The notes: generated from the sequence alone by a model not told the origin. 32,000 nt of DNA from Candidatus Saccharimonadota bacterium (GCA_965231145.1 OZ246420.1:570001-602000), one strand, 5' to 3'; shown: positions 1-32,000, numbered from the stretch's first letter. Translations and numbers: made by a program.

Positions 1-2
1 TC

Positions 3-320
3 CAGCGAGAGCCGACTCTCAATCATATAGGACACTACGTAAACATTTGACTTACTTACATTTATGGAAATACTAACTTATATAATGATTTTTTTCAATA
101 TCTAGGCGAGCTTAAAACCCAAGTCATAAAATGAGGCACTATAATAGAACAAAAGATAGCGAAAGCCCTGGAAAGAATTCATGGAAAAAACGCCTCTAAT
201 GATCAAATGGTAATAAAGAGTATTGCTCGTTTATTGAGAGTGTGAGTAGAAACGCAAAAAGAAAAATTAGGTACTATGAGTGCACATATAGAAGCATTAA
301 AACAAGATCCCGATTTCTAA
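3..320 (+). CDS. hypothetical protein, C-terminal fragment (5' end outside window)
   Basis: Frame 3 is open from the window edge to TAA 318-320 if three in-frame TGA are read as Gly (...LGELKTQVIKGGTIIEQKIAKALERIHGK...). It is followed by a hairpin terminator shared with convergent rplA. No family recognised. Confidence 0.45.
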
Positions 321-335
321 TACGGAATTTGACAC

Positions 336-367
336 AAAAAAACTCGGAACTATTTCCGAGTTTTTTA
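336..367. terminator. bidirectional intrinsic terminator between the convergent 5' fragment gene and rplA
   Basis: ACTCGGAA-ctat-TTCCGAGT is an 8-bp stem with an A-run on one side and a T-run on the other. Confidence 0.7.
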
Positions 368-412
368 CAATGATTAATTTTGCTGTCTGCCTTTTCAGCT
401 TTACTCTGTTTA

Positions 413-1090
413 TTAGTACTCAAGCTGAACACCAGGTCCCATAGTTGGAGAAAGAACAACTTTTTTGATAAGTTTTCCTTTTACACCTGCTGGCTTATTT
501 TCTTCGAGAGCCTTAAGAAATGCTTTCACATTGTCTGCGAGCTGCTCATCAGAGAACGAAAGTTTTCCGATACCTGAGTGGATATTTCCTGTCTTGTCCA
601 TTCTGAACTCGATACGACCCTTCTTTACTTCATTGATCGTAGCAGGAAGATCCATAGTTACCGTACCAGCCTTTGGTGAAGGCATGAGACCTTTAGGACC
701 GAGCATTTTTGCTACCTTTGCCATATCCTTGATCATGTCAGGAGTAGTCAAAAGGATATCAAAATCGATCTTTCCCTTCTCAATATCAGCTAAGAGCGAT
801 GAGTTTCCAGCGATATCAGCACCCGCATCTTTTGCCATGCTTACCTTATCATCAGAAACGTACACAGCGATCTTTACTGTCTTACCTACTCCGTGAGGAA
901 GGCTTGTTACAGCTCTGATCTGCTGATCATTATACTTAGGATCTGCAAATGTCTTCACAGCGATATTGAGCATACCGGTAAATTTTGAGTATGATCCTTT
1001 CTTTACAAGAGTAATAGCCTCTTCAATAGAGTATTTCTGCTCTGGATTGATAAGGTCTCTTACTGCTTTATACTTTTTTCCGTGTGCCAT
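413..1090 (-). CDS. rplA: 50S ribosomal protein L1 (uL1)
   Basis: Uninterrupted 225-aa ORF with ATG 1090 and TAA 413-415. MAHGKKYKAV..., GKTVKIAVY and LGPKGLMPSPKAGTVT are uL1 hallmarks. It lies downstream of rplK as in the conserved rplKA unit. No TGA codons. Confidence 0.95.
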   Translation of the reverse strand: MAHGKKYKAVRDLINPEQKYSIEEAITLVKKGSYSKFTGMLNIAVKTFADPKYNDQQIRAVTSLPHGVGKTVKIAVYVSDDKVSMAKDAGADIAGNSSLLADIEKGKIDFDILLTTPDMIKDMAKVAKMLGPKGLMPSPKAGTVTMDLPATINEVKKGRIEFRMDKTGNIHSGIGKLSFSDEQLADNVKAFLKALEENKPAGVKGKLIKKVVLSPTMGPGVQLEY

Positions 1091-1289
1091 AGTAATCTAC
1101 GTATAAACAACTAAAAGTGGTCATAACGCTAGGCAAAGCCAAGCTCCCACAGGTAATCATCCTCTCTTCCGCAGTGACAGGAAAACTAACCTCTTTATCT
1201 TATTCATAGCAATTAGATTATAGATATTAGATTATAGCATCTTGCTGATATCTAATATCAAACATCTAATTGCTTGTTATGTATTATGG
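1091..1289 (-). promoter_or_regulatory. structured rplK-rplA spacer, a candidate L1 autoregulatory leader
   Basis: The 199-nt spacer has a long nested hairpin (GCAATTAGAT...ATCTAATTGC around GATATTAGAT...ATCTAATATC, about 1209-1273). It also has a GC-richer segment reading AGGAUGAUUACCUGUGGGAGCUUGG on the minus strand. From memory, this resembles the 23S L1-stalk sequence AGGAUAGGUGGGAGGCUU. Confidence 0.35.
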
Positions 1290-1736
1290 TTATTTGATTT
1301 CAATTCCCATATTTTTTGCTGTACCTGCGATGATTTTCACGAGTGAATCCATCTTTGCAGTGTTCATAACAGGCTTCTTGATCTCTGCAATCTCTTCAAG
1401 ATCTTTCTTAGAAAGAGTACCGATCTTTGTCTTGTTTGGAGTAGCAGAACCTTGTTTCTGCTTAAGTTTCCACAAAAGAAGATGCGATGTAAGTGGAGGA
1501 AGAATTTCCATGTCATACGTTCTGTCTGAGTACACAGTAATCACTGCTGGAACTTTTACGTCTGTCCCACCAAATTTTGCTGCGATATCTCTTGTTTTAT
1601 CATTAAATTCCTTGATGAATGTTCCGATATTTACACCATTTTGACCAAGGATAGGACCCACTGGAGGTGCTGGCATAGCTTTACCGGCAGTCACATGGAG
1701 GGTAAATTTTTTCTGAATTTTCTTTACTGGAGCCAT
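1290..1736 (-). CDS. rplK: 50S ribosomal protein L11 (uL11)
   Basis: 148-aa ORF with a TAA stop. PAPPVGPILGQNGVNIGTFIKEFN matches the uL11 N-terminal motif. No TGA codons. Confidence 0.95.
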   Translation of the reverse strand: MAPVKKIQKKFTLHVTAGKAMPAPPVGPILGQNGVNIGTFIKEFNDKTRDIAAKFGGTDVKVPAVITVYSDRTYDMEILPPLTSHLLLWKLKQKQGSATPNKTKIGTLSKKDLEEIAEIKKPVMNTAKMDSLVKIIAGTAKNMGIEIK

Positions 1737-1775
1737 TGTTATAATAAATACAAGTAAAACGATACGCTGAACACA

Positions 1776-1849: not shown

Positions 1850-1861
1850 CTGTCGTTAGCC

Positions 1862-2668: not shown

Positions 2669-3253
2669 TTAGTCTGTTGCTGAAACCTTATCAAAAGCTA
2701 CTGCGATAGGAGTAAGTCTTCAAAGTATTTCTACATTTACAACAACGATCCCCTTCTCTCCATCCACATCTTTCACATTTCCTTTCATCCCTGCGAAATC
2801 ACCTTCTTTCAGCATAACAACATCACCTTTGAGGAAAGGCACAAATATCTCTGCTTTTTCATTACTCTTTTCAACCTGAGCCATAATATTTGCATGCTCC
2901 TGCTCGGTAAGAGGGATAGGACGGGTTTCTGCTCCAACGATAAGTTTTACTCCAGGTGTATTTCTGATAACATACCAAAGCTTATCATTCATCCTGGTCT
3001 TAATGAAAATATATCCAGGGTAGATTTTTCTTGGCTTAATTACCTTCTTTCCTTTTGACACAGTCGCCTCATTTACCATAGGAACGAGAAAATCTACAAC
3101 ATCTTCTCAAAGATCTTGCTTCTTTACACGTTCTCTCAGATTTTCTACTACGAGCAATTCCTGTCCTGAAACCACACTCAGTGAGTACCATCTATGAACA
3201 TTATCCTCTATCTGTTTTTTTATGTCATTACTATTTGTTTGGAGTTTTTCCAT
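2669..3253 (-). CDS. nusG: transcription termination/antitermination factor NusG
   Basis: ATG 3253 overlaps the secE stop (TAATG). There are two in-frame TGA (3107-3109 and 2720-2722). The KOW tail VNVEIL[TGA]RLTPIAVAFDKV parallels E. coli VSVSIFGRATPVELDFSQV, with TGA on the Gly. The true stop is TAA 2669-2671. Confidence 0.9.
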
Positions 3254-3542: not shown

Positions 3543-4028
3543 TTACTCAGTAGTTTGGCATATTTGCGTTATATGATCCCACTGTCCTCCTTCATTGAGA
3601 CACTCATCCATGACCTGCTGCACTGTCTCTGTTCTCAGTTCACATGCAGCTTTTTGCTCATCCCACTGAGCGTTCATTGCAAGACATTGCTCTTTTGAAT
3701 ATTCACATACTTTTAGCTGTTCATTTCGCTGATTTCCCGCTGTGAGACAATTTTGCTCTGAGTACTCACATCTCTCTGTTTGCTCATCCCATTGATTGGC
3801 AGCGGAAAGACACGAGTTCTTTAGGTCTTGTCTCTCACATTCCTCATTCATATCATCTCGCTGAAATCCTCTGCCTAAACACTCTTTCTTTGCATCCCCA
3901 GTGGAAGTCGCTGTCGTTACTACGGGCACTACGCCTGTATTTGTTTCTGCATCTCATCCGAAAAATGTACATCCGGCAAGGAACATACCTGTCATTATCA
4001 TACTTATGAAGACATATATCTTTTTCAT
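3543..4028 (-). CDS. Cys-rich repeat lipoprotein (unknown family)
   Basis: ATG 4028. MKKIYVFISMIMTGMFLAGC is a signal peptide plus lipobox L-A-G-C. There is one TGA (3954-3956). Four tandem ~21-aa repeats follow the pattern CL...NQWDEQ....CE(Y/L). The stop is TAA 3543-3545. Confidence 0.65.
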
Positions 4029-4126
4029 GGACTCTCTTATAAAAAATAAAACACTTCTCTCATTCATTAAGAAGAATTATTCCTCAAATATAGTAGTAAT
4101 CATCGCACCGCTACTTTGCAAGGGAT

Positions 4127-6473: not shown

Positions 6474-8198
6474 TTATTTTCCTAGAAAAATTTTATGCAT
6501 CTTTGCAAGAAGATCTTGTTTCTGTTCAGAGGAAATTTTTGGATATTTCATAAGACGCTGCATCGCGTGCTGGATGTATTTTTGTCCTAGACCTAGCACA
6601 TCCATCTGTTTTTTGTCATCAGTATGAGTGTCCCGTTGTCTTTCCCAAAACAGCTGCGTTTCAAGAAGTTGTTCCTTGAGATCTGCACTAACTTGTTCAC
6701 TAAAGATACTACTCAAAGGTTGATCTTCGAGAAGTACAGCAAGTTCACCAACGAGTTTTACTATCTCTTCAAGCTTCGGCGAAGAAATATTCATCTTTGT
6801 CAAAAAGTCCTGATAGAAAAAACTTGCAAAGGAAAGTTCATCTGCTTGCTTCACAGGTTTTTGTTCTTTATTTTTCTCAATGTTTTTCAGTATCAATGCC
6901 TGTGTTTTCGTAAAGTTTGTATATTGTTGCTTCAAGATATCATGACTTATTTTTAAGCGTTCTGAGATCTTTTCAAAGTACCATGCAAGAACAGTCAGGT
7001 CTTGTATATAAAGCAAGATACCAAACATCTGTTCGATAATACGTTTTCTTTCTATAGGACTATTATCATCATACTTTGCGAGAAGCTGAGTAAGGATATA
7101 GAGTACCCCATCCTCTGCTCCAGCAAAAAATGTGTTGATCTGTTGTTCTGTGGGAGAAATATTTGCCCGCTCATCGACGTCTTTAAATCCTTCCGGCAAA
7201 CGAAGAATTTTCGGATAACTGTCTTGTTCATATGCTATCTTCAGCGCACGAACAGTCGCATCAAATCCTGCAGGATCATTGTCAAAAAGAAGATACAAAT
7301 TTTGCGTATAACGCTTCATCAGCTTCATATGACCTGGTGTCAGTGATGTTCCACAGGTTGCAACTCCTATGTCCAATCATAGACGAGAAAGCCCAATAAC
7401 GTCCATATATCCTTCGACGACAATAAGCTTATCGTGTATCTTGATATTATTTTTTGCAATGTGTAATCCATACAATACTTTTGATTTATCGTACAATGGG
7501 CTGTCGCTGCTGTTCAGATATTTTGGATTATCGTTTGGATCTATGGCACGAGCACCAAAGCCAATAAGCGTACCGATATGATCATAGATAGGGAATGTAA
7601 TACGATTGCGATAGAAACTATAGAGATCTCCGGTTTGTCCTTTTTTACCAAGCGAAATAGTAGTAATATCTGCTTCAGTAAATCACTTTGTTCCCAAGAG
7701 CTGCGTGAGCCCATAGTGACTATCTGGCGCATATCCGAGTCCAAATTTTTCTATGATATCATCGCTAAGCTGACGACGTGTGTGAAGATACTCCGTTGCC
7801 ATCAGTGATTTTTTCAAGTTCTCTGAGAAAAATGACTGTGCTGTACGAAGCATCAGTTTATATTTTTCTTTTTCAGCCCCGAGAGACTCCTGCTTATCGT
7901 TCTTATTATATTCATATTTACTGATATCAATATTTGCTTGAGGCGCAAGGATCTTCACTGCATCTCGGAAATCAATTTTCTCTATCTCGATAATAAACTT
8001 GATTGCATTTCCCCCTATGCCTGTTGAAAAACACTTAAAGATCTGCTTCTCCGGAGAGACAGTGAACGATGGTGTTTTCTCATTGCGAAACGGCGAAAGC
8101 CCAACAAAATTGCGCCCGACTTTTTTCAGGGGCACATAGCGACTCACAACGTCGACAATATCTATATTTGCTAATATATCGTCTGCTATACGTGACAT
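6474..8198 (-). CDS. dnaG: DNA primase DnaG
   Basis: Track fragments 7683..8240 and 6474..7376, plus the unlisted middle part, are one frame joined by TGA 7683-7685 and 7377-7379. Primase motifs are [34 protein letters not shown] and the Toprim block LIVVEGYMDVIGLSRL[TGA]LDIGVATCGTS...LLFDNDPAG. ATG 8198 (MSRIADDIL...) is preferred over the TTG at 8240. Confidence 0.9.
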
Positions 8199-8307
8199 GA
8201 GAGCAGTATACTTATTTTCTTTATAGATTTCAATTGGCAAATTATGGCCTATTACCTACTAAGTTATTTACTTAACAGAACGACTCCCCCATCAGCAAGA
8301 GCTGCAA

Positions 8308-9265: not shown

Positions 9266-9305
9266 GAAAAACCGGCTGGAGAATATTCCAGTCGGCCTTT
9301 TTTTA
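9266..9305. terminator. bidirectional terminator between 9033..9224 and miaB
   Basis: CCGGCTGGA-gaatat-TCCAGTCGG has one G-U or mismatch, flanked by A5 and T7. It overlaps the last miaB codons. Confidence 0.6.
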
Positions 9306-10799
9306 TACTAATTTTCCAAAAAGTTTCATCGGTTCAACTTCGGTAATTTCCACTTCGACAAAGTCTCAAAGCTTAATTCCATGGTCATCTCTGTATCCAT
9401 CATCAGTATCAAGTTTAATAATGATGTTTTTCATATTGTCCGCGTAACCAGAAAAGAACTTATCCGTAACCTTATTGACCATCATAAGTCTCTTTGTTCC
9501 AATTTCTGCTTTATTGTTTTCTTCTGAGATGCGACGAAGAATCTCATTCATCCTCTGCCAGCGCTCTTTTTTCACTTCACGCGACACATCGTCTTTGAGT
9601 TTCTTTGCTGCTATCGTTCCTGGACGCGGTGAATAGATACCCATATAGACCATATCGAATTTTGCATACTCCATCAGATCAAGGGATGCCTGAAAATCTT
9701 CTTCTGTCTCACCACAAAAGCCGATGATAATATCTGTCGTAATACTTATTGGACGTTTTAATGCACGGATATTATCCACAAATTCTTTATATTGCTGTAC
9801 AGAATATCCTCTGAACATAGATTTTAATATCGTATCTGAGCCAGCCTGTAACGGCATGTGAATATGTGGACAAAGTTTTTCTTCCGTCTCGTGTAGCTCA
9901 AGCAATTCTTTTGGAAAATAAGTTGGATACGGCGACGTGTAACGAAGCCGGCGGAGCCCTTCGAGAGGTAAAATCTGACGCAGGATCTCGACAAAATCCG
10001 GATGTTTATTGACGATCTGTCCGAGAAGTGTTATCTCCTCTACTCCTTGTGAAAGATGATATTTTACTTCGGTGATAATCTCTTCGACCGGTCTATTTTT
10101 TTCCAAACCGCGCGAATACGGCACAATGCAATACGCACAAAATTGATTACAACCGGTAGAGATAGGCACATATGCGGTCTTCGTATTGTCTTTAAACAAT
10201 TGATTGGTTCCGTGAGGAATAATAGACGAATACTCATTAGTCAGCTCCACATCACCCTTCACTTCATATCACAATCTTTCTGCAAATTTTGGAAGCAGTC
10301 CAACATCATCGATACGGAAAAACAGTTCTACATTTGGAAATTTCATATTCACTTTTTTAAACAACGGATCGAATGCATAATTCACAAAAGCATAATCACC
10401 CGTCGGGCTATCAAATTTTTCATGACCTTCCAGGTCATCGACGTCGAGGCCAATGATCACAGGGTCGACTGTCTTCACACCTCCAATGAAGTTACCAAGC
10501 TGCAAAGCCTTCTGTTCTTTTTTGTCACGATGTTTGATAATTTTCGCAGTCTTTAAGTAATGTTGCACCATACAACCCGTCATCCATACTTTCTGTGTCG
10601 GCTTCACTTCAGTCATTATACCAAATACTTTGTCTTCAGACTTCTGTCTTACCGAACACGTATCGAAAATAACGATGTCAGCGCTGTCTCTGTCATCAAC
10701 ATATGAAAATCACGCATTGGTCAAAATAGCCTTAATGCGTGCACTGTCAGAATAGTTCATCTGACAACCAAAGATAACGATGTGAAATGTTTTATTCAT
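9303..10799 (-). CDS. miaB: MiaB-family radical-SAM tRNA methylthiotransferase
   Basis: ATG 10799. Three in-frame TGA (about 10710, 10269-10271 and 9366-9368) join the track fragments. The N-terminal domain has FGCQMNYSDS...DTCSVRQKSEDKV. The radical-SAM motif is GCNQFCAYCIVPYSRG. The TRAM tail is [TGA]DFVEVEITEV. The stop is TAA 9303-9305. Confidence 0.85.
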
Positions 10800-10916
10800 C
10801 ATGCTCAATTCGAAATATTAAACGTTAAGTACAATATTATATTTAGAATTTAGAATTCAACATTCAAAATTAGTAAGATAGTAGATAGTAAAGATTAGCG
10901 AGTAAGTTTCAATCTT

Positions 10917-11628: not shown

Positions 11629-13959
11629 ATGGCCGAGAATACTTCTACTCCTTCATCTAATCAGGCTGCTATCGTAAAGCCAGCTGTTGTGCAGTCTACT
11701 ATCAAAAAATGAAGAAAACTTTCTCCAAAAGCAGTAGTCTTTGGATGTCTTGGATTTATCGCGATATTTATTGTCGGACTATTTCTTGCACTCTACGTAG
11801 GACTCCAAAATCCAAGCAGGCTTATCAACATAGGTATCCAGCCTGCTAACGCAAAAAGCTTACTGATGATCATCGCAGGTGTGTTCTTTGGCGTTATTTT
11901 CCTCTTTGGATTTGGCTTTTTCGCTATCAACACCTATAGACTCGTCAGAAATAAAGGAGGAAGCAGAACAAAGTATCTTGCAGGTATGTTCTTTGGATTT
12001 ATACTCCTTGGTATATCTATTGGTCTTGGTGCTGCTGCAATCACTAGGATACAAGCTCTCAAAGTAGAAAGCTTTTCAAATACTGATGAGCTTGTTATTC
12101 CATATCTTATTACAAGTAGCAATAATACTGCTAATACAAGCTATACCTATGCAAAAGCTCCTGGCATCGCCATGATTGCCCCACTCGATATTGCATATCA
12201 GGTAAATGCTGATGTACTCAATGCAAAATATAGAAACGTCGCAGGCAATACTAACCCGCTTGTTATGGTCCTTGACTGTGGCAATGGTACAAGACAAAGA
12301 GAAAGTCAGAAAGTAAACGGAAATGGATACGTCGCAGGCAATAATGCTTTCTTCGACACCACATGTCTCTATACGCAAAAAGGAACTTACTATCCAACCA
12401 TCACATTTACTTATAGAGACACGGTAAAACAACAAAACCAATCATTCACTCTTGACGCAGCAACTATTACTATCAACGCACAACTGAGTGTTTCAGTTGA
12501 TGGCAAGCCTATCATGACAAACAGTGGAAATTCTGAACTCATCGCTGGAGATGCACCAACGAGAATACAATTGGATGCAAAAAACATCTTCTCTGAAATC
12601 GGCATGCCAGACAATAGTATCATCTGGGATATGGAAAGTGACGGAAGCCCAGATAAGGAAAACAAAGTAACATTTGGATACAACTACATCGATCCAAAAC
12701 TCTATATGGTTTCATATAGATTTCCGGGAGCCGGAGATTTATCAACGCTCTGGTATCACTTTTATCTGAGAGTCAATCAAAGCGACACACCAAGATGTTC
12801 AGTAAGCGCAACTAACGATGGGAACACATACAAGTTTGCAACGCTTTGGTCTGGAGGCATCAGTACAACACAAGAGATTAGCACCTATCGTTGGGAGATC
12901 TATGATATTGATACAGAATCAACTGTTACATCAATACCAACGAGAAACGATTCGCTGGAATATACGTTCAATAAGCAATGAAATTACACCGCAAGACTTA
13001 ACTTTACGACGATTGATAATGCTCAGTGACTATGTGAATCAGAAATTGTGCGTGCGTGAGCTCCAGCATATGATGTAAAATATATCATCAGCTATAGAAA
13101 ACCTGGACAGAGAAACTTCACAGAATTCCCGATGACATGAACTATCTCTCAAAAAGATGATAGAGTCGTTATTGATACCATACCTATTGATCTTCAAATC
13201 CAAGTAACAGACATCTCACCAAAACCAGCCACAGCGGTCATAACAGCAAAAGTAGGTGATATCTTTATGATCAAGAGATCGTCAACACTTTTCCAGTCTA
13301 CAGTGAGTGATAAGAAAGATCAGGCGATTACAATCATCGTTGAAGACGAACAGGGAACGAAAATAGAAAAAGTAATCGACCTCACACTCAATCAGTCTAT
13401 CATACAAGGAGTACTCAAGGCTGATATCTATGCAGGATCAGAACCTCTTACGGTCAATCTTGATGCATCTACCACAAAGCTCAATGATGACAACGACGAA
13501 ATCATCTATTTTACATGGGATTTCGGAGATGGAGAAACAGCAAAAAATGTTTCACAAGGAAAGCTTTCTCATATCTATAAGTTCGATCAAAAAACTCAAT
13601 CAGGACAATATAGACCAAAGGTAACAGTGACTACAAAAAATGGTTTCCAATCAACCTTTGAGATAGATACGCCAATCTCTGTGACAAGAAAAGAATCAAC
13701 GGTAAAATTAACTCTTCCTTCTCATCCTACACAAGTCGCACTCAAAAACACACCGGTCGACATGGAAATGAATTCTGATGGTCCAATCAGTAAGATCAGT
13801 TGGAACTTTGGAGACGGAACAACGTTCTCATGTGATGATAGATCGTGCGCACAAATAAAGCACGGCTACAAAGAAGAAGGAGACTATACGATCAATGTGA
13901 TGGTAGAGTACCAGGATCGCCCTTTCGCACTCGATAGTATCAAGATAAAGATACAATAA
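11629..13959 (+). CDS. membrane-anchored surface protein with multiple PKD-like domains
   Basis: ATG 11629. Five in-frame TGA (11710, 12979, 13027, 13057, 13138) join 11866..12981 and 13267..13959, and all fragments share one frame. There are three N-terminal TM helices. PKD hallmarks are FTWDFGDGETAK...GQYRPKVTVT and ISWNFGDGTT...GDYTINVMV. TGA falls on Gly in FNKQ[TGA]NYTARL and DNAQ[TGA]. The stop is TAA 13957-13959. Confidence 0.8.
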
Positions 13960-15371: not shown

Positions 15372-15405
15372 AAAAAAAGATCTCCTTGCGGGGATCTTTT
15401 TTTTA
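15372..15405. terminator. bidirectional terminator between the M16 peptidase and the ATPase-S1 gene
   Basis: A7-AGATCTCC-ttgc-GGGGATCT-T8. It overlaps the stop codon of the minus-strand gene. Confidence 0.7.
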
Positions 15406-18231
15406 TTGTTGGCTTCGCACTACTCTCTTTTCACCATTGATATCTTTGAATTCAACTGCTTTAACGCGGATTTTATCTCCGATATTATAGATATCTTTCC
15501 AGTTAATGCCTTCCGGTGCTTTCACAAAGTTTTTATGTAAGAGACCTTCTACTCACTTCACTGTAACGAATAATCCATAGTTATACTTAAGCTTCACAAA
15601 TCCATCGTACCAGTCTCCTATTTTCACATCGTTGATGGTAAAGGTTGTTTTACCCACCATAGGCACTCCTACTTCGTTAATCTTCATAGTAGTGTCAAAT
15701 CATGATGTTTGTCCTACAGCCTTAGCAGGCTGTTGTACTGGAGTTGACACAGAACTCTGAGGCACGCTACTCGTTGCTGACTGCGGATTACTAGCAGGCA
15801 CTGGTTCTTCCTTCTTTAATTCTGAATTCTGCACTTTGATTTCCGCACTTGCTTGCTGCTCATGTTTCCATCTTTCTGTATCAGCAACATCAGGGATAGA
15901 TGAAGTATTATCTATTGCTGGTGAAGCGCCTTCTTGAGCTGCTTCCATCGCTTTTTCCATCGCTTTCTCGACTGGCGAGAAAGTCTTATTTGACCAGATC
16001 TTAATCAGTTCTTCTAGTTTCCCACGCTCCATCGCATAACGCTGACGAGACTGAGTACGTATCTTGTCTTTGATCTCCTGTGAGAGATCCGGCTGTGACA
16101 ATGGCAGTGTCGACATACTAAATACGTCTGACATGATACCATCGACCATCAGTCTTATATACGCACGAAATTTTGGTATCGAAATAAGATCGTTTGCTGT
16201 CAGCAATCATTTGAACTGCTGCGCAATATCTACTGCGTCGTCATATCCTACGTTAAACGAAACGATAGAACCCACGTTACCAAAAATCGCATTACGAATA
16301 GTCTCTGAAAGCTGCGACGTATACTGATTCGCAACAATAAGCGCTAAGCGGTACTTACGAGCTTCGGAAAGGATCACTGCAAACGAGTCTGTTGCAAAGT
16401 TCTGAAACTCGTCAATATGCAGGTAGAAAGGACGTCTTTCCTTTTCAGGAATATTTGCACGAGACATTGCATCGATCTGCAGCTTCGTCACGATAAATGA
16501 ACCAATCATCTCAGTATTATCTTCACCGATCTTACCTTTCGAAAGATTGATCAGAAGGATCTTTCCTTCATCCATTACCTTTCTCATATTAAGCTTCGAC
16601 ATTGGCTGACCAAAGATATTTCTCACGATAGACGACGAAAGGAACTGACCAACTTTATTTGTAATAGGTGCAATGGCTTCATTTCTTTGGACATCTGACC
16701 ACTTATCAAACTCAGCACGCCGAAACTTCATAACGATGGGGTCTTTCACATATTCAAGTACCTCTTCACGGAAATTCTTATCGGTCAATACACGCATGAT
16801 ATGCAACATCGTTGCATTTGGATACTCCACAACAGAAAGCATTACATTACGAAGTACATACTCCAATCTTGGTCCCCAACTGGTACCGAACATCTTTTTA
16901 AATGTAGCAACCACTCACGAAACGATAATATTTTTCTCGTCCTCCGTGTTGTACTGCAGAAGATTAAATCCTATCGGATTTTGACTGTCGGAGACGTCAA
17001 ATAAAATAACGTCGTTAGTACGCCATGATGGGATATGCTCCATAACCGTATCCACAAGATCACCGTGTGGATCGATAAGACACAGTCCTTTGTTGGTATA
17101 CATATGTGATTTGATAATATTCGAGAGAAACGTAGATTTACCAGTACCTGTTTTTCCGACAATATAGAGATGACGAAACGAGTCTTCATCTTTCACACCA
17201 AAGCGAACCTCCTGTCCACGGAAGTCTGTTTTTCCCAAAAGCGTTAATGCATTCTTCTCTGTTGCTTCAGGCGTTGGTAGGTTTGATGGATAGTGAAGCT
17301 TACGATAGACAGAATAATCAAGGGTTTTGATAAAATAATCATTTGTTGGCAAGTGGAAAAAGTTTACGAGCTGTGGAAGCGCAAGTGATGTTGATTTTGG
17401 TTCAGGAATAATAGATGCGCCACCCTTCTGAACAAACTTATTGAAAACAGATTTCATCGCCATTTTCACTCACTGTTGTTTTTGAGCATCCCCAATACTG
17501 GTTCAAAATCCTATGCGCAAACCAAATTTCATAACATCATCTTCTGGTTTCTCTTTTTTCTCATCCTCCTTCTTTACTTCTTTCTTCACAAACATAGCAA
17601 AAAATTTTTTCACAGACTGTATATACTTCTTTCGCGGATCCTCTTTCTTCTTGAAAATATACGAGAATTGAAGCGTCACATTATTCAAATGATCTACTGT
17701 CTCATAAACCGAAAAGATATCTTTCATCGGATCAAGATAGCTTCCATCTTTCGTAAAGTCCTTGTCAGTCGCGATCACATCTTTATCACCATAAGCGACA
17801 TAATCAGTGATAGCAACCTGTGGTATCGCTTCTACAGGAATAAGTTCTGATGTTGGAAAACTTGAGTAAAATACATTTTCAAAATAGAATTGGATACTTG
17901 CCGGTATCTTTGCATACAGCCCTGATGAGTGGTTATTTCCTATGATCAGAAAGTGGATCGGATCAGTGATATCAGAAAAAGACTTAAGAAAACCCTGCCA
18001 GTAACCAGTACCTAAGTCGTTATCTCTAAAAGCTTTGATACGATAGAAAAAATATCCCGATGTAGGGAGCTGTTGTGGTTTTGGTGTCGGAGCAACCTCA
18101 CCCTGCATAGGCTGAGCTACTTGCTCCTTCGGAGCCTGAGTGGTTTTTACTGGTACAGAAATAACCTGCGAATTTTTACTCGCAAGTTTCTTTCCTAACG
18201 ACTCTGCTGCATCAAGTATTTTATCAAGCAT
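15403..18231 (-). CDS. VirD4/TraG-like (FtsK-HerA superfamily) P-loop ATPase with an unknown N-terminal domain and a C-terminal S1 domain
   Basis: Track fragments 17503..18231, 16915..17469, 16207..16914 and 15700..16206 share one frame. They are joined by TGA at 17503, 17470, 16915, 16207 and 15700, and there is one more TGA at 15553. Walker A is YIVGKTGTGKST, Walker B is FYLHIDEFQNF, and LALIVANQYTSQL follows. The C-terminal S1 fold is IGDWYDGFVKLKYNYGLFVTVK[TGA]VEGLLH...GDKIRVKAVEF. The stop is TAA 15403-15405. Confidence 0.75.
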
Positions 18232-18478: not shown

Positions 18479-19351
18479 ATGACAAAAAAACATCTTATAT
18501 ACACGGTATTTTCACTTTTCGCAGCTACTGTATTTTTTAGTGGAAGCCAAGCACAGGCTGCATCAAACACGTATGATGCGGAAGCGAATGCCTTGGTAGC
18601 AAATATCCTACAGATCCTTGATAATGATGTTCCACCTGCAGAAGAAAGCGGCAATAACGTCGTAGTTTTCTCGAGCAATGAGATTATCGCGATGAATGTG
18701 CTTACTCCTTTTGTTCAGAAAAACGACACCTATGCGCTGACATCAAAAAGTCTCAATGAAAGACGAAATGGCGGTGTGTTACTCAAAGATGCTCAGAGCG
18801 CTATAAATTATATTGCCGAACAAAAGCTCACTAAATATACAACCGTTGAGTCATTTCAGCCTGAAGCACCACTGAGAAGAGATGAAGCAGCAAAATTCTT
18901 TTCTCTCTTTGCAAAGCAAGTAATGAATAAAAGTGTTAATGAGTCTAAAGAATGCTCCTTTAAAGACATGGCAGAGTGACATACAGACTTACAAGGCGAC
19001 GTGATAAGTGCTTGTAAACTCAACATATTCAACGGAAAAGATGGCTTCTTCAACCCTACAAAATCACTTACCAATGGAGAAGCACTCGCAGTTCTCATCA
19101 GAATAATTGATGGAATGATGGATGAAACAAGTAGTGAGCATTGGGCAAAAACATATCTGGAGAAAGCTCAATCATATGGACTCACTCAATGAACATTTCT
19201 TGATAGCATAACCTATCTCGATCAACCAATGACAAGAGGAAACATGGCTCGTCTTCTTGAAGCAGCAAGCTATATCGCCCCCCTTAAACTCCAGCTCGGT
19301 GGAAATGTCTCATACTCCTTTACTGCACAGTGATTTGTACGTAGTAATTAA
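18479..19351 (+). CDS. secreted protein with S-layer-homology (SLH)-like repeats
   Basis: Signal peptide MTKKHLIYTVFSLFAATVFFSGSQAQA. TGA at 18977, 19190 and 19331 join 18479..18979 and 19001..19192. The SLH-like blocks are FKDMAE.HTDLQGDVISACKLNIFNGKDGFFNPTKSLTNGEALAVLIR and HWAKTYLEKAQSYGLTQ...MTRGNMARLL. The stop is TAA 19349-19351. Confidence 0.65.
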
Positions 19352-19527: not shown

Positions 19528-19564
19528 ATTGTTTCATTATTTTATCTTTCTTATCACGACACAT

Positions 19565-20065
19565 ATGACAACAAATGAATCACGTATGATCATTATCAGT
19601 GCACTAGTAGCCGTAGTAGCAAGTTTATTAACAGGTTATTTCATCAATAGACCATCAGATAACCAAAGAATATTTGACTATTACCATACAGTAAACGTAG
19701 CTGAAGTAAGTCCGCATGTCCTTATTGAAAGAGTGAAGAATGGAGAAAAAATAACTATCGTGGATGTTCGCGATCCAGCAGCGTATGCAGCAGCTCACAT
19801 AGAAGGCGCTATCAATATTCCTGCTAGTGACGAAGAGCTTGTTGCAAAATTTAAGGCATTAGATCAAAGTAATGCTATAGTCACATACTGTTATACACAA
19901 GATTGTATGGCATCAAGACAGGTTGGGAAAATTCTCTCAGAAAATGGCATCTACGTACAGCATCTCAACGTATGATATACTGAACGGGAAGCAAAAGAGT
20001 GAACAGGCAATGTGTTTAGCGGATGAAAAGGATCATGTCCTCTCACCGGCTCAGCATGATGTTAA
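19565..20065 (+). CDS. membrane-anchored rhodanese-domain protein
   Basis: ATG 19565 (the track starts at an upstream TTG). One TM helix, then a rhodanese fold: ITIVDVRDPAAYAAAHIEGAINIP...IVTYCYTQDCMASRQ. The track stop 19973-19975 is TGA, and the frame continues through three more TGA to TAA 20063-20065. Confidence 0.65.
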
Positions 20066-20094: not shown

Positions 20095-21276
20095 TTATCT
20101 TCTTAATAGCATAGCATCTCCAAACGAAAAAAACCTATACTTATTTTCTATAGCATAAGCATATAACTCCATGACTTTTTCATAGCCAATAAACGATGCA
20201 ACAAGCATGAGTAATGTGGATCCTGGCAAATGAAAGTTAGTAATTAATCCATCTACTAGTTTCCATGCAAACCCAGGATAGATAAATATCCTTGTCTGAC
20301 AAACTATCTTCGTGCCTTCTCTTTTCCACGAATGAATGTACTTCATACACTCTTCCAGAGAAATTTTTTCTGTTACTGCATCTCGATATTCGTAATTCTT
20401 AATTTGAAATTCGTCATTACCTTTGCTCTCTGCTCTTTGCTCTTTCATCTGTTTATATAAGTACGGCAAAGTCTCCAGTGTCCTTGCGACAGTTGTCCCT
20501 ACAGCAATGCTGTTTTTTCACTGAGATTTTTCTTCAGCAATAGTCGAGAAAATAGACTCATCAATAATAAGCATTTCTTCATGTATATGATACTCACGAA
20601 TATCTTCGGTATCTACCGGTTTAAATGTTCCCAGCCCTACATGAAGCGTCAGAAAGTGAGAATCGACTCATTGTGCGCGCAATGAGTGTAACAGATCATC
20701 AGTAAAATGAAGCGATGCAGTCGGTGCTGCAACAGATCCAAGATGCTCAGCAAAGCGAGTCTGATAGCGCTTCTCTTTTTCTGCGCTATGAGAAATATAT
20801 GGGGGAAGTGGCATCTGTCCATACATTTCAAAAAACAATACCGCATACACTCATGTGATATGAAAGATAACTCATTTGTCTGTTAGCTCTTCTACTGTGA
20901 GTTTTATCCTTTCACTGACATGGATAACTGCTCATTTTCTTACTCTCTTTGTCAAAGAAATGAGTCACTCAAATCTATAATCATCTATCAGCTGCAACAA
21001 AAAGATTTCTCACTCATCTACTACTCTACTCGCACTAGTATGATGCGGGATCTCTACAAAGACATCTTTTAACGGTACACGAGCTTTTACGACCTTAGTA
21101 TCGTTAAAGAAAATTACATCTTTCGATGTGAGAAGCGTTAGGATATCATAAAAATGATAGTCATGAAATGATGTTCCGTCAGGAACAAGTAATTTTGAAG
21201 AATCCGCTGGTGATACAGGTTCCTGCGCTATACGAGACTCAGGCAGTTCATAGTTATAATCAGAAAGTTTGTACAT
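20095..21276 (-). CDS. queA: S-adenosylmethionine:tRNA ribosyltransferase-isomerase QueA
   Basis: ATG 21276 ([20 protein letters not shown]). Seven in-frame TGA. The core motifs are [32 protein letters not shown][TGA][18 protein letters not shown] and [TGA][15 protein letters not shown]. The stop is TAA 20095-20097. Confidence 0.9.
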
Positions 21277-24969: not shown

Positions 24970-27900
24970 TTACAACTTTATCGTTCCTTTCTGTTTAGAA
25001 GTTAGTTTATCGTATTTTTGCTGAATAGCTGCATAGAGTAGTCCTTCCTTAGGTTTTCAATCCTGCTCCCACATTTCAATTAACTGTTTAATATTAGTAA
25101 GCGTTTCCGCTTCCTTTCTTTGTTGTTTTTCTTTCTTATTTTTTGAAGAAATCGTAGATATTTCTTCAACTTTCTTTCATTCTTTTTGTTTTTTACGTGC
25201 CTCTTTTTCCTTTTTAAGAATAGTAGAAGAACCTCATTTTAATACACCATTACTGTCGTATTCAACACCGTTAACTTCTATCATTATTGCATTTTGCTCA
25301 TCATCATGGAAAACAACAAATCAGGCCGAATGGGCATCACTTGCGACCACAACATCTTTTCAATCTACATATAATCCACCATTATATCCTGAAAGGAGTC
25401 ATAATTTTCTATGAAGCATCATTCTAAAGATTTGCATATCATGACAGACACCTGCGAATATCTTCTCTTCAAAAAATATTTTCTTTTCTGGATGATAAAT
25501 ATAGAGATCTGTTATTCTATCCATACATACTTGCATCTGCTCTGAAAGGCTTTTATTTTTCTTTTTATCTAATGTTTCTTGGTTATCCCAATCATAATAT
25601 CGCGTATCTATAATGAAATCTTCTACTGCCAATATTTGCTCCTTAGGAGTGAGCTTCTGAGCAGCTTTTATAAATCATTCGCATTCCAATGGAAGCTGAC
25701 CAAGATCGCTACTCAGATCTATGCTAGGATTTGCAATTTTAAATGTCCCTTTTACTTTTTCATATGCTTCTTTTGATATAGTAGGTATTGTCGGAGATGC
25801 TGAAGATAACTGTAATTTGTAAGAAAAAATACACTGAGGCTCGGAAGGAATAATACTTACGTATCATGCCTCATCCTCTTCCATGTCAAAATCAACAGAG
25901 AGGCCTGCTGCATTTACACACTTTATTGATGCTTTTTCAATAAGAGTATTTATACCTTTTGGCAATATTTTAGATGACATATCATTATCTAATTGGATAA
26001 CAATCTCTACCTGATCTATGGGCTCCCATAACTGTGGTACATAATTATACGAAGTTCATTTCCATACTTTTCCATCAAAATGAGAAAATAAATTTATAGA
26101 AAGCATTTGTGTTATAGGCTTACTCAAGCGTAATATTTCTGCATGATTATCTTCTTCAAAACTTTCTTTACTTCCTCCTTGTATCTGTTTATCTTGTTGA
26201 TTTCTTAAATGATCGTGCTCTGTTTGCTCTAAGATCTTTTTATGCTCTTGATGAAACAAATCTGCATAGTCCTTACTGCTTTCACTCCCATTTGTATGTG
26301 CTGCTGATCACGCTGTAGATCAGAAAATCGTTTGCAGAAGTTTTTCTTGAGCAGTAAGCTGAGGGACTTGTTGTACATTGAAAAGTTTCTTCATTATCCT
26401 ATAGACTCCTACCTCATTTTTCACGAGTCAAGGCAACTGCCCCATATAGTGCTTCAGACCTTCCTTTTCCTTCAGCATCATCGTAGAGAGATGCGAGTCC
26501 ATGAAATAATTAGAGGCAAGTACGTTTTCTATTTCTTTTTCATATGCTGACAATGCAAATGCATCAAGAAATTGCGAGCGCATCTTGCCTTCCTTATCAT
26601 CAATACAATTTAGCAAAAATAATTTCTTTTTTACGTCCAGAGAAATAGCATTTGGACGAATTACTGGCACTTCTATTTTTAGAATTGTACCTTGCATGGT
26701 CTTTGCTGTAACCGTAATCAGCCCATCCGAGCCATGTTCTACATGAAAATTTTTTATCGGTTGTCATATGTGATCTCATATTACTTCACTCGCATATCTA
26801 TCCATCATATGGAGACAACCATCCTGATCTCTCAGTATGAGGAGCTGATTATATTCATTGCTATAAAATCAATTATATGCTCATTTCTCTAAATAAGTCT
26901 CACCAAAAAAATCTAGCATATATTCTTTGCTCTTATCATTATCCCAATTATCTACATCGTCGTCGTTATCTGCCATGTCACTAGTTGATGATTCGTATTT
27001 TATAACATGCACAAATCACTGGCACAAATTATTAAAGGTGATCTCTGCTGGCAATCACGACATGAATTCATCATATCTCTCTAAAAATCTTTTAGTAGGA
27101 TCAAATGAGGTTAGATTTCCATGAACTCTAACTACCCGAGCTTGTAATTGTTCATCTTTGACTATTTCATATCCCACTGGAATGTCTTCATTTATAGAGG
27201 CTACTATATCACGAATAAGCATACCTTTAGCACTATCTGCATATGGATATAATGCTCCATGCCATTCTTTAGTCTCCTCTTTTTGGGCTTCACGGAGATA
27301 CTCAATATAATTCATTGTTTCTTTTATAACACGTTTACTTTCATGGCATGCATCAAACTCTAGAGGCGCATATCTTCTATGAACTAACAAATGAGCATAG
27401 TATTCATCTATCTCATGTCTCAATGAACTATACTTACGAGACAATATCAGAGGTTTATCGAGATTGTATTCTTTGACATAGATCCCCGTATAAAGCATTT
27501 TTTTCGCACTGTCTAACATGAAACTAGGGGCATCAATATTCTTAAGTTTTCTTAATCTTTCGACCCTCTCTGGAGAAAGGAAATACGCCCTAATACCTTC
27601 TATTTTTTCTTTATTTATATTTTTATGCTTTGCAATCAATTTCGTTAACGAATTATTTACCTTCTGCATAAAAAATTTGTAGTTCTTGATTACATCCAAA
27701 TTGAGAATAATTGGTATAAGGATCTCGTTTAAGTTCTCCTCGCTATGATATAATCTCAATAACATATTAATTCCATCATCAAGCGAGATACTACAAATAT
27801 ACTTTAAAAACTCTCTTTGTTCTTTTAGAGGAAGAGCTCTTATTTCTTCAAATATCTTATTCTTTTTTTTGATAAATTCTCTCGTCTCTGAAATTTTCAA

Positions 27901-28020
27901 AGTGTCTGAAAAGTATCATGATGTATCAATATTATCATCATAATGACGAGAAACCTCATCTGTTGTGAGATTCACCATATTTTGTTCGCTAGATGCTCTT
28001 TGGGGGCTTACAGATGCCAT
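24970..28020 (-). CDS. large (1016 aa) hypothetical protein with a possible C-terminal transglutaminase-like cysteine protease core
   Basis: ATG 28020. Track fragments 27055..27900, 26428..26697, 26056..26259 and 25399..25632 share one frame. I hand-translated the gaps between them and found only TGA, with no TAA or TAG. There are about 19 sense TGA. The stop is TAA 24970-24972. The candidate core is FAGVCHDMQIFRMMLHRKL...ASDAHSA.FVVFHDDEQ. Confidence 0.7.
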
Positions 28021-28073: not shown

Positions 28074-28721
28074 CTATCTTTTCCACGCTCCATAACAGAT
28101 CGTTTCTCCTTTGTCTAAAGCCATTTTCTCGTAATCTGTCACGATAGAGAAATGTTCCGGCAAATAAGGCGACTGGTAGAGATCGGTCGTTTGGGCAAAA
28201 GTTTCCCAACCTGCAAGCTGAAATTGCTCTACAGAATAGTGAAATAAGGGATGATCGTCTGTCTTTAGTTTTACCTGTCCTTCTGGCACAAGTAGTGAGT
28301 TATACATCGAGATAAACCTTGGACTCGTAAGACGACGTTTTTCGTCTGACTCTCTGGGTCTTGGATCAGGATGAACTATCCAGATCTCATCTATCTCTCC
28401 GGCATCAAATCGTCTATCGAGATGGTGGATGATTCCACGGATAAATCTGACGTTTTGTAATCCTTGTTCGTTTGCTTGCTGGATACCACGCGACATTCTA
28501 TCACCTTTGATATCAATACCTATGAAAAGTGTATCAGGAAAATGCGGTGCTAGGCCTACGCTATATTGCCCTTTGCCGCAGGCAAGCTCCAGCACGATCT
28601 TCTTATAACCAAACGTTTCCTTTCGTTTTCCTTTATAAGAAATAGAAAAATCTTCTGCTGGAGTAATCAGCAGATCACTGGTATTTGCTATCTTATAGAA
28701 ACGAAGTTTTTGCTTAGCCAT
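28074..28721 (-). CDS. trmB: tRNA (guanine-N7)-methyltransferase TrmB
   Basis: 215-aa ORF. The SAM-binding motif is VLELACGKGQYSVGLA, followed by FIGIDIKG and IWIVHPDPRPRESDEKRRL (compare FPDPWxKxRHxKRR). The stop is TAG. No TGA codons. Confidence 0.85.
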   Translation of the reverse strand: MAKQKLRFYKIANTSDLLITPAEDFSISYKGKRKETFGYKKIVLELACGKGQYSVGLAPHFPDTLFIGIDIKGDRMSRGIQQANEQGLQNVRFIRGIIHHLDRRFDAGEIDEIWIVHPDPRPRESDEKRRLTSPRFISMYNSLLVPEGQVKLKTDDHPLFHYSVEQFQLAGWETFAQTTDLYQSPYLPEHFSIVTDYEKMALDKGETICYGAWKR

Positions 28722-28723
28722 GG

Positions 28724-29041: not shown

Positions 29042-29104
29042 GTTAATAACGTTAAGAAACCAATGCTGATAGTATATGTTTATACATCCTTATGTCTATG
29101 CTTT

Positions 29105-29234
29105 CTTACCGAGCCTTTAGCTTATAACTCGTATACCAATCCCTCTCCTCGCCAAGGGCTCGGCATCCCCCTTTATAAAAGGGGGAAGACACCCGCGAAA
29201 ATGCGGGTGTAGGGGGATTAGAGGGGTTTACAAG
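29105..29234. other. GC-rich multi-hairpin extragenic island B
   Basis: Four stems: CCGAGCC...GGCTCGG, CCCCCTTT-ata-AAAGGGGG, ACACCCGC-gaaaat-GCGGGTGT and GGGTTT...AAACCC. It lies directly after the ABC exporter stop. Confidence 0.45.
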
Positions 29235-30986
29235 CTAAAACCCACTTTGCAATTCTAGCATCTTCGCATAGACTCCTCCGCTCTTTACGAGAGAGTCATG
29301 ATTTCCTTCTTCAACTATTTTCCCATGATCGAGTACGATGATTCTGTCTGCTTTCTTCACTGTTTGGAGTCTATGTGCAATAACCACTACTGTTCTTCAC
29401 TGGAAAAGATTATTGAACGCCTTCGTTACCTCTTCTTCAGAGAATGAGTCTAAAGCCGAAGTTGGCTCATCGAGCAAGATGATCTGAGGGTTCTTAAGCA
29501 TGACTTTTGCGATAGCGAGTCTTTGTCTCTGACCTCATGAAAGCTTTACACCCTTCTCTCCGATTTCTGTTTGTACGCCATCAGGAAACTCATAGATGAA
29601 TTGGCACTGGGCGCCATTGATAGCCTGTTCAAGTTCTTCTTGAGATGGTTCATGATCAAGCGCATACGTGAGATTTTCATAGATGGTGCCATCGAACACA
29701 TTTGGTTCTTGGGTCAGATAACCGATATGCTTATAGTATGATTTGAGTGAGACATAGTTCTTATTAGTCTCGTTTGGCAGTGGCTGTCAGTCAATAAGTA
29801 CTTCTCCTTTTTGCGGATGGATGTATCCCGCTATAAGTTTAATGAGCGTAGACTTTCCACTTCCTGATATACCAACAAGAGCTGTTTTTTTTCATCATTC
29901 AAGGGTGAGAGAGAAATCTTTGAGCACTTCTCCTTTTCCATAGCCATAAGTAATATTTTGCAACTCAACATCTCATACACTTAATTCTATTTTTTTTCAT
30001 TCATTATATCATATTAATGAAGGTATATTATCAAATGTATCTCGAAGCTTTTGAATATAAATATTGTCCTGATGGAATGACGTAATGTAATCATTTAAAT
30101 CCATAATACTTCCATAAATTTGATTTAATATCATCCGAAACAGAGCAAGATCTCCAACAGTAAATTCTCCACGTCATATACGAACGATAACATAAAACAT
30201 AATACCAATACGTAGAATAGTGAAAGTAAATTTCTGCAAATCAAACGTTACAAGCATCTTTCTTGATTCTCTTGTTCGCATTTTATAAATCTTTCTGAAA
30301 AATGAGTCTATTTTATCTGATTCGTAGCCAAGTTTATTGTTCTGTAAAATTTCAAATTTAGACATAATCATTCTCGTTGTATTTCTATCTAATTCTGTAG
30401 ACAGATCTCTTCTTTCTTTTCTATATTTTGCCAATTTTTTATTGGCAAATTGTATAAATATAAATGAAGCTATAAAGATAACTACAAATGTGACAAAACC
30501 TTTTCGTCAAAGATTGATTGCTACAACAACAAATCATGTTATAATTGACACTCACATTCTAATTGCACTTCAAAAGAGTGATTGAAGATTAAGTCTCCAG
30601 GTAGGCAGTCATTTAGATATAATATTATTGATTCTTCACGTCCCTAAAGATTCAAAGCTATTATTATCTCCTATGGCATATTTAACGATATATTCTTGCC
30701 ATAGATTTGATTCTATAGACCAACCCATTGTACTAGAAAGTTGACGAAAAAAGTATGCAGGCAAGTCTGATAGTGCGAAGACAACACCCATAACGACTAA
30801 CCACGTATATACTATCTTCATATTTCCAACAGCTAGGCCATCAATCATTTGTTGCATTGCAATAGCTACTATGGATCCTTGTAATCCAACTTGGATAGCT
30901 CTAATTGATATAATCGTAGCAGCTCACTTAAACCCACTAATCGGAGCGAAGAATCTTTTACACCATAATCGTCTAGATTCTTTCAT
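29235..30986 (-). CDS. ABC exporter, fused permease and ATPase (MsbA-type half transporter)
   Basis: ATG 30986 to TAG 29235-29237, 583 aa, with about 16 sense TGA. The TMD is followed by LTLE[TGA][TGA][15 protein letters not shown] (Walker A), GYLTQEP (Q-loop), KLS[TGA][10 protein letters not shown] (signature), [11 protein letters not shown] (Walker B) and VIAHRL (H-loop). Confidence 0.9.
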
Positions 30987-31144
30987 AGTTGCTTAGGTAA
31001 AATACATAAAATATGATGTGCTGCATAATACATACGAACTTTTAAAAACATAGATATAATAGCTCTTTTGTGACAACTATTGCCTAGCGTTTTTTTCCTG
31101 ATTTTACTTGTTTTCTTGAAAACTATGTTTATAGTGATATCATC

Positions 31145-31182
31145 AAAAAGAGAGAAACCGGCTCACACGTGCCGGTTTTTTT
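31145..31182. terminator. terminator downstream of tgt
   Basis: AAACCGGC-(8-nt loop)-GCCGGTTT. There is a T7 on the plus side and CTCTCTTTTT on the minus side, immediately after the tgt stop. Confidence 0.6.
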
Positions 31183-31183
31183 G

Positions 31184-32000
31184 TTAGCTTTCTAAAATCT
31201 CCTTCTTGATCGTCTCTACTAAATTGTGCAGATACCAAATATTGTGCAATGAAAGCAATGTTCACGCCAGCATCTCGTTTTCTCTGACGAGATGGTGCAG
31301 ATATGCTTTTGTGTAGTTACGTGATACGATACAGTCGCTGTCAGGATCAAGCGGCGTATGATCGTCGCGATATTGTGCATTTGAAAGTTTGATATTTCCA
31401 TCTTTTGTCATCGCGACTCCGTGGCGTCCAAGTCTTGTCGGGAGGACACAGTCGAACATGTCGAAGCCGTTATCGATTGCATGACGAATCATGGCTTCTG
31501 TTCCAACTCCCATGAGATAGTGGGGCACAGCCTGCGGCAATTTTGGCCCGACAAATGAGACAATACGTGCTACATCGTCATGCGACTCACCCACGCTCAC
31601 TCCTCCCACTGCGATACCGTCAGTTGCAAATGGCGTCAATGCATCTATCGACTCCTGACGAAACTCTTCATAAAGTCCTCACTGAACGATAGGAAACAAG
31701 ACTCATTTTGCTTTGTCATAGACTTTCTGGAAGTGCTCGTATTGTTGTTTCGCCCGCTTATGCGTGAGATTCATCTGCTGCTTAAATTTCTTTTCTGAGA
31801 TACCCGGAGGCGAACACACATCGAGCATCATCATGATATCAGAACCTATGTTCATCTGGATATCCACACATCCTTCTGGTGAAAAGAAATGCTGAGATCC
31901 ATCGTGGATACTACGAAATTTAATTCATTCTGCCGTAATTTTCGAGAGCGGCTTTCTTTTCTTCACTCATTCTTCGTCTAGCCCTTGTCCCTTATCCCTC
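31184..32000 (-). CDS. tgt: queuine tRNA-ribosyltransferase Tgt (5' end outside window)
   Basis: The frame is open from the window edge. Motifs are [24 protein letters not shown][TGA][35 protein letters not shown] and [13 protein letters not shown][TGA]TLLSLHN. There are five sense TGA. The stop is TAA 31184-31186. Confidence 0.9.

Follow-up and report, generated by a model that had tools for sequence, protein, structure and literature searches.

The question raised by the 32,000-nucleotide stretch of DNA GCA_965231145.1 OZ246420.1:570001-602000, deposited under the name Candidatus Saccharimonadota bacterium and referred to below as the window, is by which genetic code its genes are to be read. 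In an earlier interpretation of the DNA (the sequence-only reading), UGA had been proposed to be a glycine codon throughout and NCBI translation table 25 to apply. According to the analysis described here, the window very probably belongs to an uncultured bacterium of the Absconditabacteria/SR1 lineage (JAEDAM01, Patescibacteria) in which UGA encodes glycine, CGA and CGG encode tryptophan together with UGG, the codons AGA, AGG, CGU and CGC encode arginine, and UAA and UAG are the sole stops. The meanings of these codons were derived in two ways, by aligning the proteins to standard-code ones and by comparing the genes with those of relatives one codon at a time.

Every open reading frame (ORF) fragment said to abut its neighbor across a TGA was found to stop at an in-frame TGA, with the frame carrying on after it. 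All seven TGAs that had been quoted singly (two in tgt and one each in nusG, dnaG, queA, the M16 peptidase gene and the signature motif of the ABC exporter; Table 1) were TGA on the proposed strand and in the proposed frame, and the double TGA of the ABC exporter gene was also in frame. The ORF track did need to be re-stitched: with TAA and TAG as sole stops, the fragments merged into 28 genes, which ended at TAA in 24 cases, at TAG in 4 and at TGA in none, and no in-frame TAA or TAG was present inside any of the 28. In agreement with a hand count of about 85 sense TGAs, 85 in-frame TGAs were counted (82 when the Met at 28721 is taken as the trmB start), spread over 17 of the 28 genes, the essential genes dnaG and nusG among them. 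The longest stop-to-stop ORF under the standard code (table 11) had 422 codons, and none reached 500. When only TAA and TAG were used as stops, six ORFs exceeded 500 codons (1029, 950, 779, 593, 585 and 504). Removal of TAG from the stop set in place of TGA left the ORF lengths unaltered, removal of TAA gave one ORF longer than 500 codons, and the longest ORF in 200 first-order Markov simulations was 359 codons. Pfam domains extended at full length over the TGAs (for example, Queuosine_synth 1-322/322 over seven of them), and the same TGAs were seen in independent assemblies of several sequencing runs. It was thus confirmed that UGA is a sense codon in the window and that TAA and TAG are its sole stops.

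The residue encoded by UGA was studied along three lines. For alignment to solved-structure homologues, which came essentially from standard-code organisms, TGA was masked as X to keep the alignments unbiased. Glycine was the majority residue in 17 of the 35 TGA columns obtained in this way (binomial p = 6e-11 against a glycine background of 7.3%), and not one of the 35 was clearly a tryptophan column. The TGA codons of QueA listed in Table 1 corresponded to glycine in every solved QueA structure, and those of the methylthiotransferase did so in both MiaB and RimO structures. In the M16 peptidase, glycine was found in all three structures at TGA31 and TGA155 and in two of three at TGA366; in DnaG, it was found at TGA288 in two of three solved primases. 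TGA178 of NusG was aligned to the glycine of ..SIFGRATP.. in Escherichia coli NusG, and Zymomonas mobilis Tgt has glycine at TGA25 and TGA107. Masked codons are unscored, and the register was ambiguous at two places, which were left uncounted. One is the rhodanese tail, where an ungapped alignment gives G, W and G against ..GGIEYWRKENG.. of 3nhv; the other is codons 160/161 of the ABC exporter against BmrA, where the ambiguity is one residue.

The second line was a standard-code control consisting of 78 metagenomic ABC homologues without in-frame TGA, which were read as DNA. A metagenome scan with the ABC alignment had returned mostly generic ABC transporters, and these were used as a control rather than as relatives. 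In this set, the TGA columns contained glycine in 44% and tryptophan in 0% of cases, and the columns of the window's ordinary GGN codons contained glycine in 23-91%. About half of the TGA columns were conserved glycines, as was the case for ordinary GGN codons in the same alignments. The sequence-only reading had placed the TGAs on invariant glycines, and this description suits about half of the columns. It does not suit codon 364 of the ABC exporter, the first of the TGA pair, which lies in a variable column where standard-code homologues have A, P, R or K; the second (codon 365) is on the conserved glycine. Nor does it suit the Tgt TGA at 31262-31264, which adjoins a conserved glycine (..LGA.. 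in Z. mobilis versus ..LA[TGA].. in the window) and is GGC in the relative L085.

For the third line, nine loci of relatives were compared with the window codon for codon (17,774 aligned codon pairs); the comparison was made at the DNA level because many database homologues are table 4 translations with W at TGA. In 162 pairs involving a window TGA, the relatives had GGN 75 times, TGA 51 times, TGG once and other codons 35 times, and a window GGN stood opposite a relative's TGA 141 times (Fisher p = 3e-109). All three TGAs of the SLH-domain protein were opposite GGN or TGA in L004 and L085, and tgt of L085 has GGA or GGC at four TGA sites. In addition, a BLOSUM62 score was computed for each of 62 codons from its unambiguous counterparts in the relatives. 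Precisely three codons departed from table 11, namely TGA (3.63 for Gly), CGA (6.14 for Trp versus -2.14 for Arg) and CGG (6.85 for Trp versus -2.0 for Arg); the other 59 were standard. Considering that three independent lines agreed (structures, standard-code ABC homologues and codons of relatives), the assignment of UGA to glycine in the window, as judged by sequence comparison, is regarded as established, and its assignment to tryptophan is rejected.

The score of CGA and CGG bears on table 25 itself. In the plain form of this table, CGA and CGG are still arginine codons, and their pairing with TGG would reflect real Arg/Trp substitutions. This is the official code for the lineage, and a few CGA and CGG codons do occupy variable columns that are not aromatic (ABC 237, ftsE 171 and M16 153, the last being Arg in one of three structures). 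The first sign to the contrary was that TGG of the window stood opposite CGA and CGG in the first relative examined. The window contains 19 CGA and 17 CGG codons (36 in total) versus 68 TGG. In 53 pairs with relatives, CGA or CGG of the window was opposite TGG 18 times, CGA or CGG 26 times, another arginine codon once and other codons 8 times. Taken separately, CGA was opposite TGG 9 times and opposite another arginine codon once, and CGG was opposite TGG 9 times and never opposite another arginine codon. Conversely, TGG of the window faced TGG 55 times, CGA or CGG 37 times and another arginine codon once. The remaining arginine codons (AGA, AGG, CGT and CGC) faced one another 406 times, CGA or CGG once and TGG in 0 of 599 pairs (Fisher p = 1e-21). 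Mutational proximity does not explain these pairs, because the change from CGA to TGG takes two substitutions and was still met in 9 cases.

Protein alignments point in the same direction. CGA33 of TrmB is aligned, in each of the three bacterial structures, to the tryptophan of ..YKGKW.., CGG82 of Tgt is a tryptophan in Z. mobilis (..MRWAK..), and CGG287 of the MiaB/RimO-family methylthiotransferase is opposite a tryptophan of RimO; across 120 relatives, the last column was W61/R59. Aromatic residues of solved structures were found opposite CGA92 and CGG358 of DnaG and codon 315 of the ABC exporter (Phe in each case) and opposite CGA104 of TrmB (Y, V or F). For the ABC exporter, Protein Data Bank alignments, the 78 standard-code homologues and 120 relatives were used, and its five CGA/CGG columns contained 0% arginine in the standard-code homologues, with F, Y, W and L frequent there. 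At DnaG positions 358 and 536, relatives have TGG or CGA, and M16 CGA153 was opposite TGG, CGA and CGA. In the HerA/FtsK-like ATPase, CGA939 (15415-15417) was TGG in three relatives and CGG504 was opposite TGG, TGG and CGA. This protein, a 942-residue HerA/FtsK/TrwB-like P-loop ATPase with an S1 RNA-binding domain, was kept and syntenic in four relatives at 62-78% identity. For the 1016-residue orphan, which contains more TGAs than any other gene of the window, the only homologue found was a syntenic 1004-residue gene in L085 (46% identity); in this homologue, 13 of the 19 TGA sites are TGA or GGN, and the two CGA/CGG sites are both TGG.

The window also holds a control of its own. The lipoprotein-like orphan at 3543-4067 consists in part of five internal repeats with the pattern C-L-x5-Q-W-[DN]-x5-C, in which the tryptophan is encoded by TGG at 3789-3791, 3663-3665 and 3579-3581 and occupied by CGA at 3858-3860 and 3726-3728. 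In the L091 orthologue, the two CGA sites are both TGG.

On this evidence, CGA and CGG behave as probable tryptophan codons in the window, and CGU, CGC, AGA and AGG have stayed arginine codons; together these four occur 321 times, 155 of them as AGA. Of the window's tryptophan codons, 35% are CGA or CGG, and of its glycine codons, 15% are TGA. Table 25 was therefore a sound choice with regard to UGA as glycine, UGG as tryptophan and the stops TAA and TAG, and it fails for CGA and CGG, which score as tryptophan. Considering the codon pairs, the invariant tryptophans of TrmB and Tgt, the absence of arginine at the five ABC columns and the alternation of TGG and CGA within the repeat, plain table 25 is strongly disfavored and retains a small probability.

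Several observations weigh against the assignment of CGA and CGG to tryptophan. The sample is small: 25 of the 36 codons had an aligned relative, with TGG in 13 of those. CGG at position 171 of the ftsE-like gene (23464-23466) and at positions 123 (24531-24533) and 220 (24822-24824) of the orphan gene at 24165-24887 (g24165) was opposite CAG/CAA or GAC; these are variable columns in which the relatives have neither TGG nor CGA or CGG. CGA237 of the ABC exporter was opposite AGA once and falls on a glycine in BmrA, and the arginine in one structure at M16 CGA153 has already been mentioned. Scans of the window, of the same organism's neighboring contigs (L001-L003 and L094) and of the nine relatives' loci (about 200 kb) revealed no tRNA whose anticodon is UCA, UCG or CCG. 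The scans gave only Thr-GGT, Trp-CCA and Gly-CCC, all in distant loci, and the window itself contained no tRNA. The exceptional CGA and CGG sites are in variable columns and do not contradict tryptophan, but they leave some room for ambiguous decoding; the three CGG sites opposite Gln or Asp codons may reflect either noise or some ambiguity that CGG has retained.

In such a transitional state, CGA and/or CGG would be read partly as tryptophan and partly as arginine (or CGG as something else), and mixed products would result. The three CGG sites and the single CGA site opposite AGA are compatible with it, and Shulgina and Eddy considered that decoding might be ambiguous and that CGG has had a complicated history in the sister clade (PMC8629427). 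However, CGA and CGG occur at invariant tryptophan positions of enzymes, and their share of the tryptophan codons would be hard to tolerate with frequent insertion of arginine, so ambiguous decoding is given only a very slight chance of being correct.

Table 4 (Mycoplasma-type), in which UGA is tryptophan, underlies the translation of part of the organism's public Logan gene calls. UGA is clearly a sense codon, as this table requires, and the database proteins P0001 and P0002 show W at every TGA. However, this W is a translation artefact by which the invariant ABC signature LSGGQ becomes LSWGQ; in the protein database, the consensus of relatives even reads LSWWQ. The codon pairs (TGG once in 162, GGN 75 times) and the lack of tryptophan at TGA columns of standard-code homologues refuted this assignment, and its probability is minute.

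The standard code, under which the in-frame TGAs would be pseudogene lesions, sequencing errors, selenocysteine codons or sites of programmed read-through, is a formal possibility of vanishing probability, with table 11 calls existing in public records, since the 82-85 TGAs affect 17 of 28 genes, some of which are essential (dnaG, nusG), recur in independent assemblies, are kept as TGA or GGN in relatives and are accompanied by no in-frame TAA or TAG and no gene end at TGA; their number, conservation and correspondence to glycine rule out selenocysteine, read-through and pseudogenes.

The decoding favored here, with UGA as glycine and CGA and CGG as tryptophan, was compared with known codes. 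Table 25, the code of Candidate Division SR1 and Gracilibacteria, is reportedly owed to Campbell et al. and Rinke et al. in 2013. It resembles the code of the window in UGA as glycine, UAA and UAG as the only stops, UGG as tryptophan, the low G+C content and the Patescibacteria lineage, and differs in that CGA and CGG are arginine codons there and appear to be tryptophan codons in the window. Class JAEDAM01 is labelled plainly as "table 25" by current tools. To our knowledge, no NCBI table provides TGA as glycine together with CGA and CGG as tryptophan. A code with exactly these assignments was predicted for Absconditabacteria with Codetta by Shulgina and Eddy in eLife in 2021 (PMC8629427), and CGA and CGG as tryptophan codons in Absconditabacteria were treated as established in NAR in 2026 (PMC13092985). 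All three reassignments of this code agree with those of the window, arginine is likewise encoded mainly by AGA, and the G+C content of the window (0.38) is inside the range of 0.26-0.38 reported for it (PMC8629427). No qualitative difference was seen; per 10,000 codons, the window uses CGA 21, CGG 18 and UGG 74 times, which is close to the highest values given in PMC8629427. Table 4, used by Mycoplasmatales, Entomoplasmatales and some insect endosymbionts, shares with the window a stop-to-sense change of UGA and a small low-G+C genome, but UGA is tryptophan there and glycine here. In Anaerococcus and RFN20 Bacilli (Onthovivens), CGG is tryptophan (PMC8629427; PMC13092985), so that, as in the window, an arginine CGN codon has been taken by tryptophan at low G+C; unlike in the window, only CGG is changed, CGA is arginine, UGA is unaltered and the phyla are unrelated. 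The code of the window is therefore already known biology and fits the 2021 description in each respect examined (PMC8629427).

From the literature on the lineage, a mechanism may be proposed. Low G+C content would first have driven the codons in question to rarity (Campbell 2013; Rinke 2013; PMC8629427). Release factor 2 would have been lost, and a tRNA-Gly with anticodon UCA would decode UGA; CGA and CGG would be decoded by tRNA(UCG) and tRNA(CCG) with tryptophan identity elements (G73, no A20), and CGU and CGC by tRNA-Arg(GCG). It may further be suggested, as an idea that is unlikely on balance, that the conversion of CGA and CGG to tryptophan is advanced here and is older and wider in JAEDAM01 than the handful of Absconditabacteria genomes for which it was predicted, with CGG perhaps residually ambiguous. 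An advanced stage is suggested because CGA and CGG account for such a share of the tryptophan codons, invariant tryptophans of catalytic domains included.

Table 1. Features of the window, their reassigned codons and the TGA codons that lie on a glycine column of the structure alignments
Feature	Position	Strand	Reassigned codons	Pfam family and remarks	TGA codons on a Gly column
Whole window	1..32000	.	TGA=Gly, CGA=Trp and CGG=Trp (probable differences from table 11)	Cellular DNA	
rplA + rplK	413..1736	-	Zero TGA, CGA or CGG	Assigned by Pfam; highly expressed genes	
nusG	2669..3253	-	2 TGA (3107-3109, 2720-2722)	NusG+KOW	178
Lipoprotein-like orphan	3543..4067	-	1 TGA, 2 CGA	No Pfam family	
dnaG	6474..8240 (start approximate)	-	2 TGA (one 7377-7379), 3 CGA/CGG	Zn_ribbon_DnaG+DNAG_N+Toprim	288
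MiaB/RimO-family methylthiotransferase	9303..10808	-	3 TGA, CGG 9948-9950	UPF0004+Radical_SAM	33, 481
PKD-domain membrane protein	11629..13959	+	5 TGA	PKD; orthologues in L091, L092, L093	
M16 peptidase	14036..15253	+	5 TGA (one 14126-14128), CGA 14492-14494	M16+M16_C	31, 155, 366
HerA/FtsK-like ATPase, C-terminal S1 domain	15403..18231	-	6 TGA, 3 CGA/CGG	DUF87, TrwB, S1	
SLH-domain protein	18479..19351	+	3 TGA	SLH	
Rhodanese-domain protein	19529..20065	+	4 TGA, CGG 19985-19987	Rhodanese	
queA	20095..21276	-	7 TGA (one 20668-20670)	Queuosine_synth, full length, E = 1e-99	115, 203, 252
1016-residue orphan	24970..28020	-	19 TGA, 2 CGA/CGG	No Pfam family	
trmB	28074..28721	-	CGA 28623-28625, 28410-28412	Methyltransf_4	
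ABC exporter	29235..30986	-	16 TGA, including the LSGGQ signature (29535-29537) and a double TGA (29892-29897); 5 CGA/CGG		338, 365, 400, 484 (LSGGQ), 530
tgt	31184..31999 (cut by window end)	-	5 TGA (31679-31681 and 31262-31264 among them), CGG 31754-31756		25, 107

The 28 genes cover 86% of the window, which has a G+C content of about 38% by composition count. Those identified by Pfam as cellular genes were rplA, rplK, nusG, secE, a DHFR-like gene, dnaG, the methylthiotransferase gene, the genes for the PKD protein, the M16 peptidase, the HerA/FtsK-like ATPase with its S1 domain, the SLH protein and the rhodanese, queA, an ftsE-like ATPase gene, trmB, the ABC exporter gene and tgt. Ten orphan genes matched no Pfam family even after re-translation in which the reassigned codons were read as Gly and Trp, and an Rfam scan of the window gave nothing at threshold. 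Like rplA and rplK, secE (3253-3465, minus strand) contains no TGA, CGA or CGG. The absence of reassigned codons from these three genes fits avoidance in highly expressed genes, in what is a small sample.

Two further ORFs deserve mention. In the gene at 4823-5782 (minus strand), which is free of TGA, CGA and CGG, residues 7-182 form a DHFR domain, to which a C-terminal extension of about 137 residues belonging to no known family is fused. A 99-codon ORF at 4403-4702 (minus strand) contains five CGA/CGG and two TGG codons and would be very rich in tryptophan if recoded (..WLSWIQIPIKQWIPW..); it had no homologue in the relatives' syntenic regions and no Pfam family, and it may not be a real gene.

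With regard to the source organism, the best named homologues belonged to candidate division SR1/Absconditabacterales (50-55% identity), and those of Gracilibacteria were at about 40%; by this measure, the organism is probably affiliated with Absconditabacteria/Gracilibacteria (GTDB class JAEDAM01). Runs ERR4405439-41 and ERR7850080 gave Logan assemblies with proteins identical to those of the window, and cluster data placed identical table 11 fragments of the MiaB gene on an NCBI contig of 1,107,293 bases. In the GTDB species set, the closest genome was GCA_017992195.1, "Patescibacteria group bacterium Gw_Eff_bin_18", which was syntenic, with protein identities of 70-90%; a single genome-collection scan with QueA as the query returned one locus. 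A contig of the same organism (L094, 1-5213) that extends beyond the right end of the window carries, just past tgt, a type I restriction-modification system (HsdS, HsdR), a YgjP-like protein and an S24 peptidase. At this site, the relative L085 has a different set, consisting of methylase/SNF2 genes.

Sense-codon reassignments are very rare in bacteria, and the choice of table has practical consequences for this organism. Its public gene calls (L001-L003, L094, P0001 and P0002) are inconsistent, some having been made with table 11 and others with TGA as tryptophan; the Logan calls made with table 11 give fragmented dnaG, nusG and miaB, and those with TGA as tryptophan give the LSWGQ signature. 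On the window as a whole, table 11 breaks 17 of the 28 genes into fragments, table 4 puts tryptophan in place of glycine and creates an ABC signature that is impossible, and table 25 would misread 36 codons, a third of the tryptophans, as arginine. The correct translation would be that with TGA as glycine and CGA and CGG as tryptophan, and the public calls made by table 11 or table 4 are wrong. Incorrect residues at conserved tryptophans and glycines harm homology searches, family models and structure predictions in a lineage whose proteins are already mostly orphans. The window provides independent codon-level support, obtained without profile hidden Markov models, for a reassignment otherwise known from computational prediction alone.

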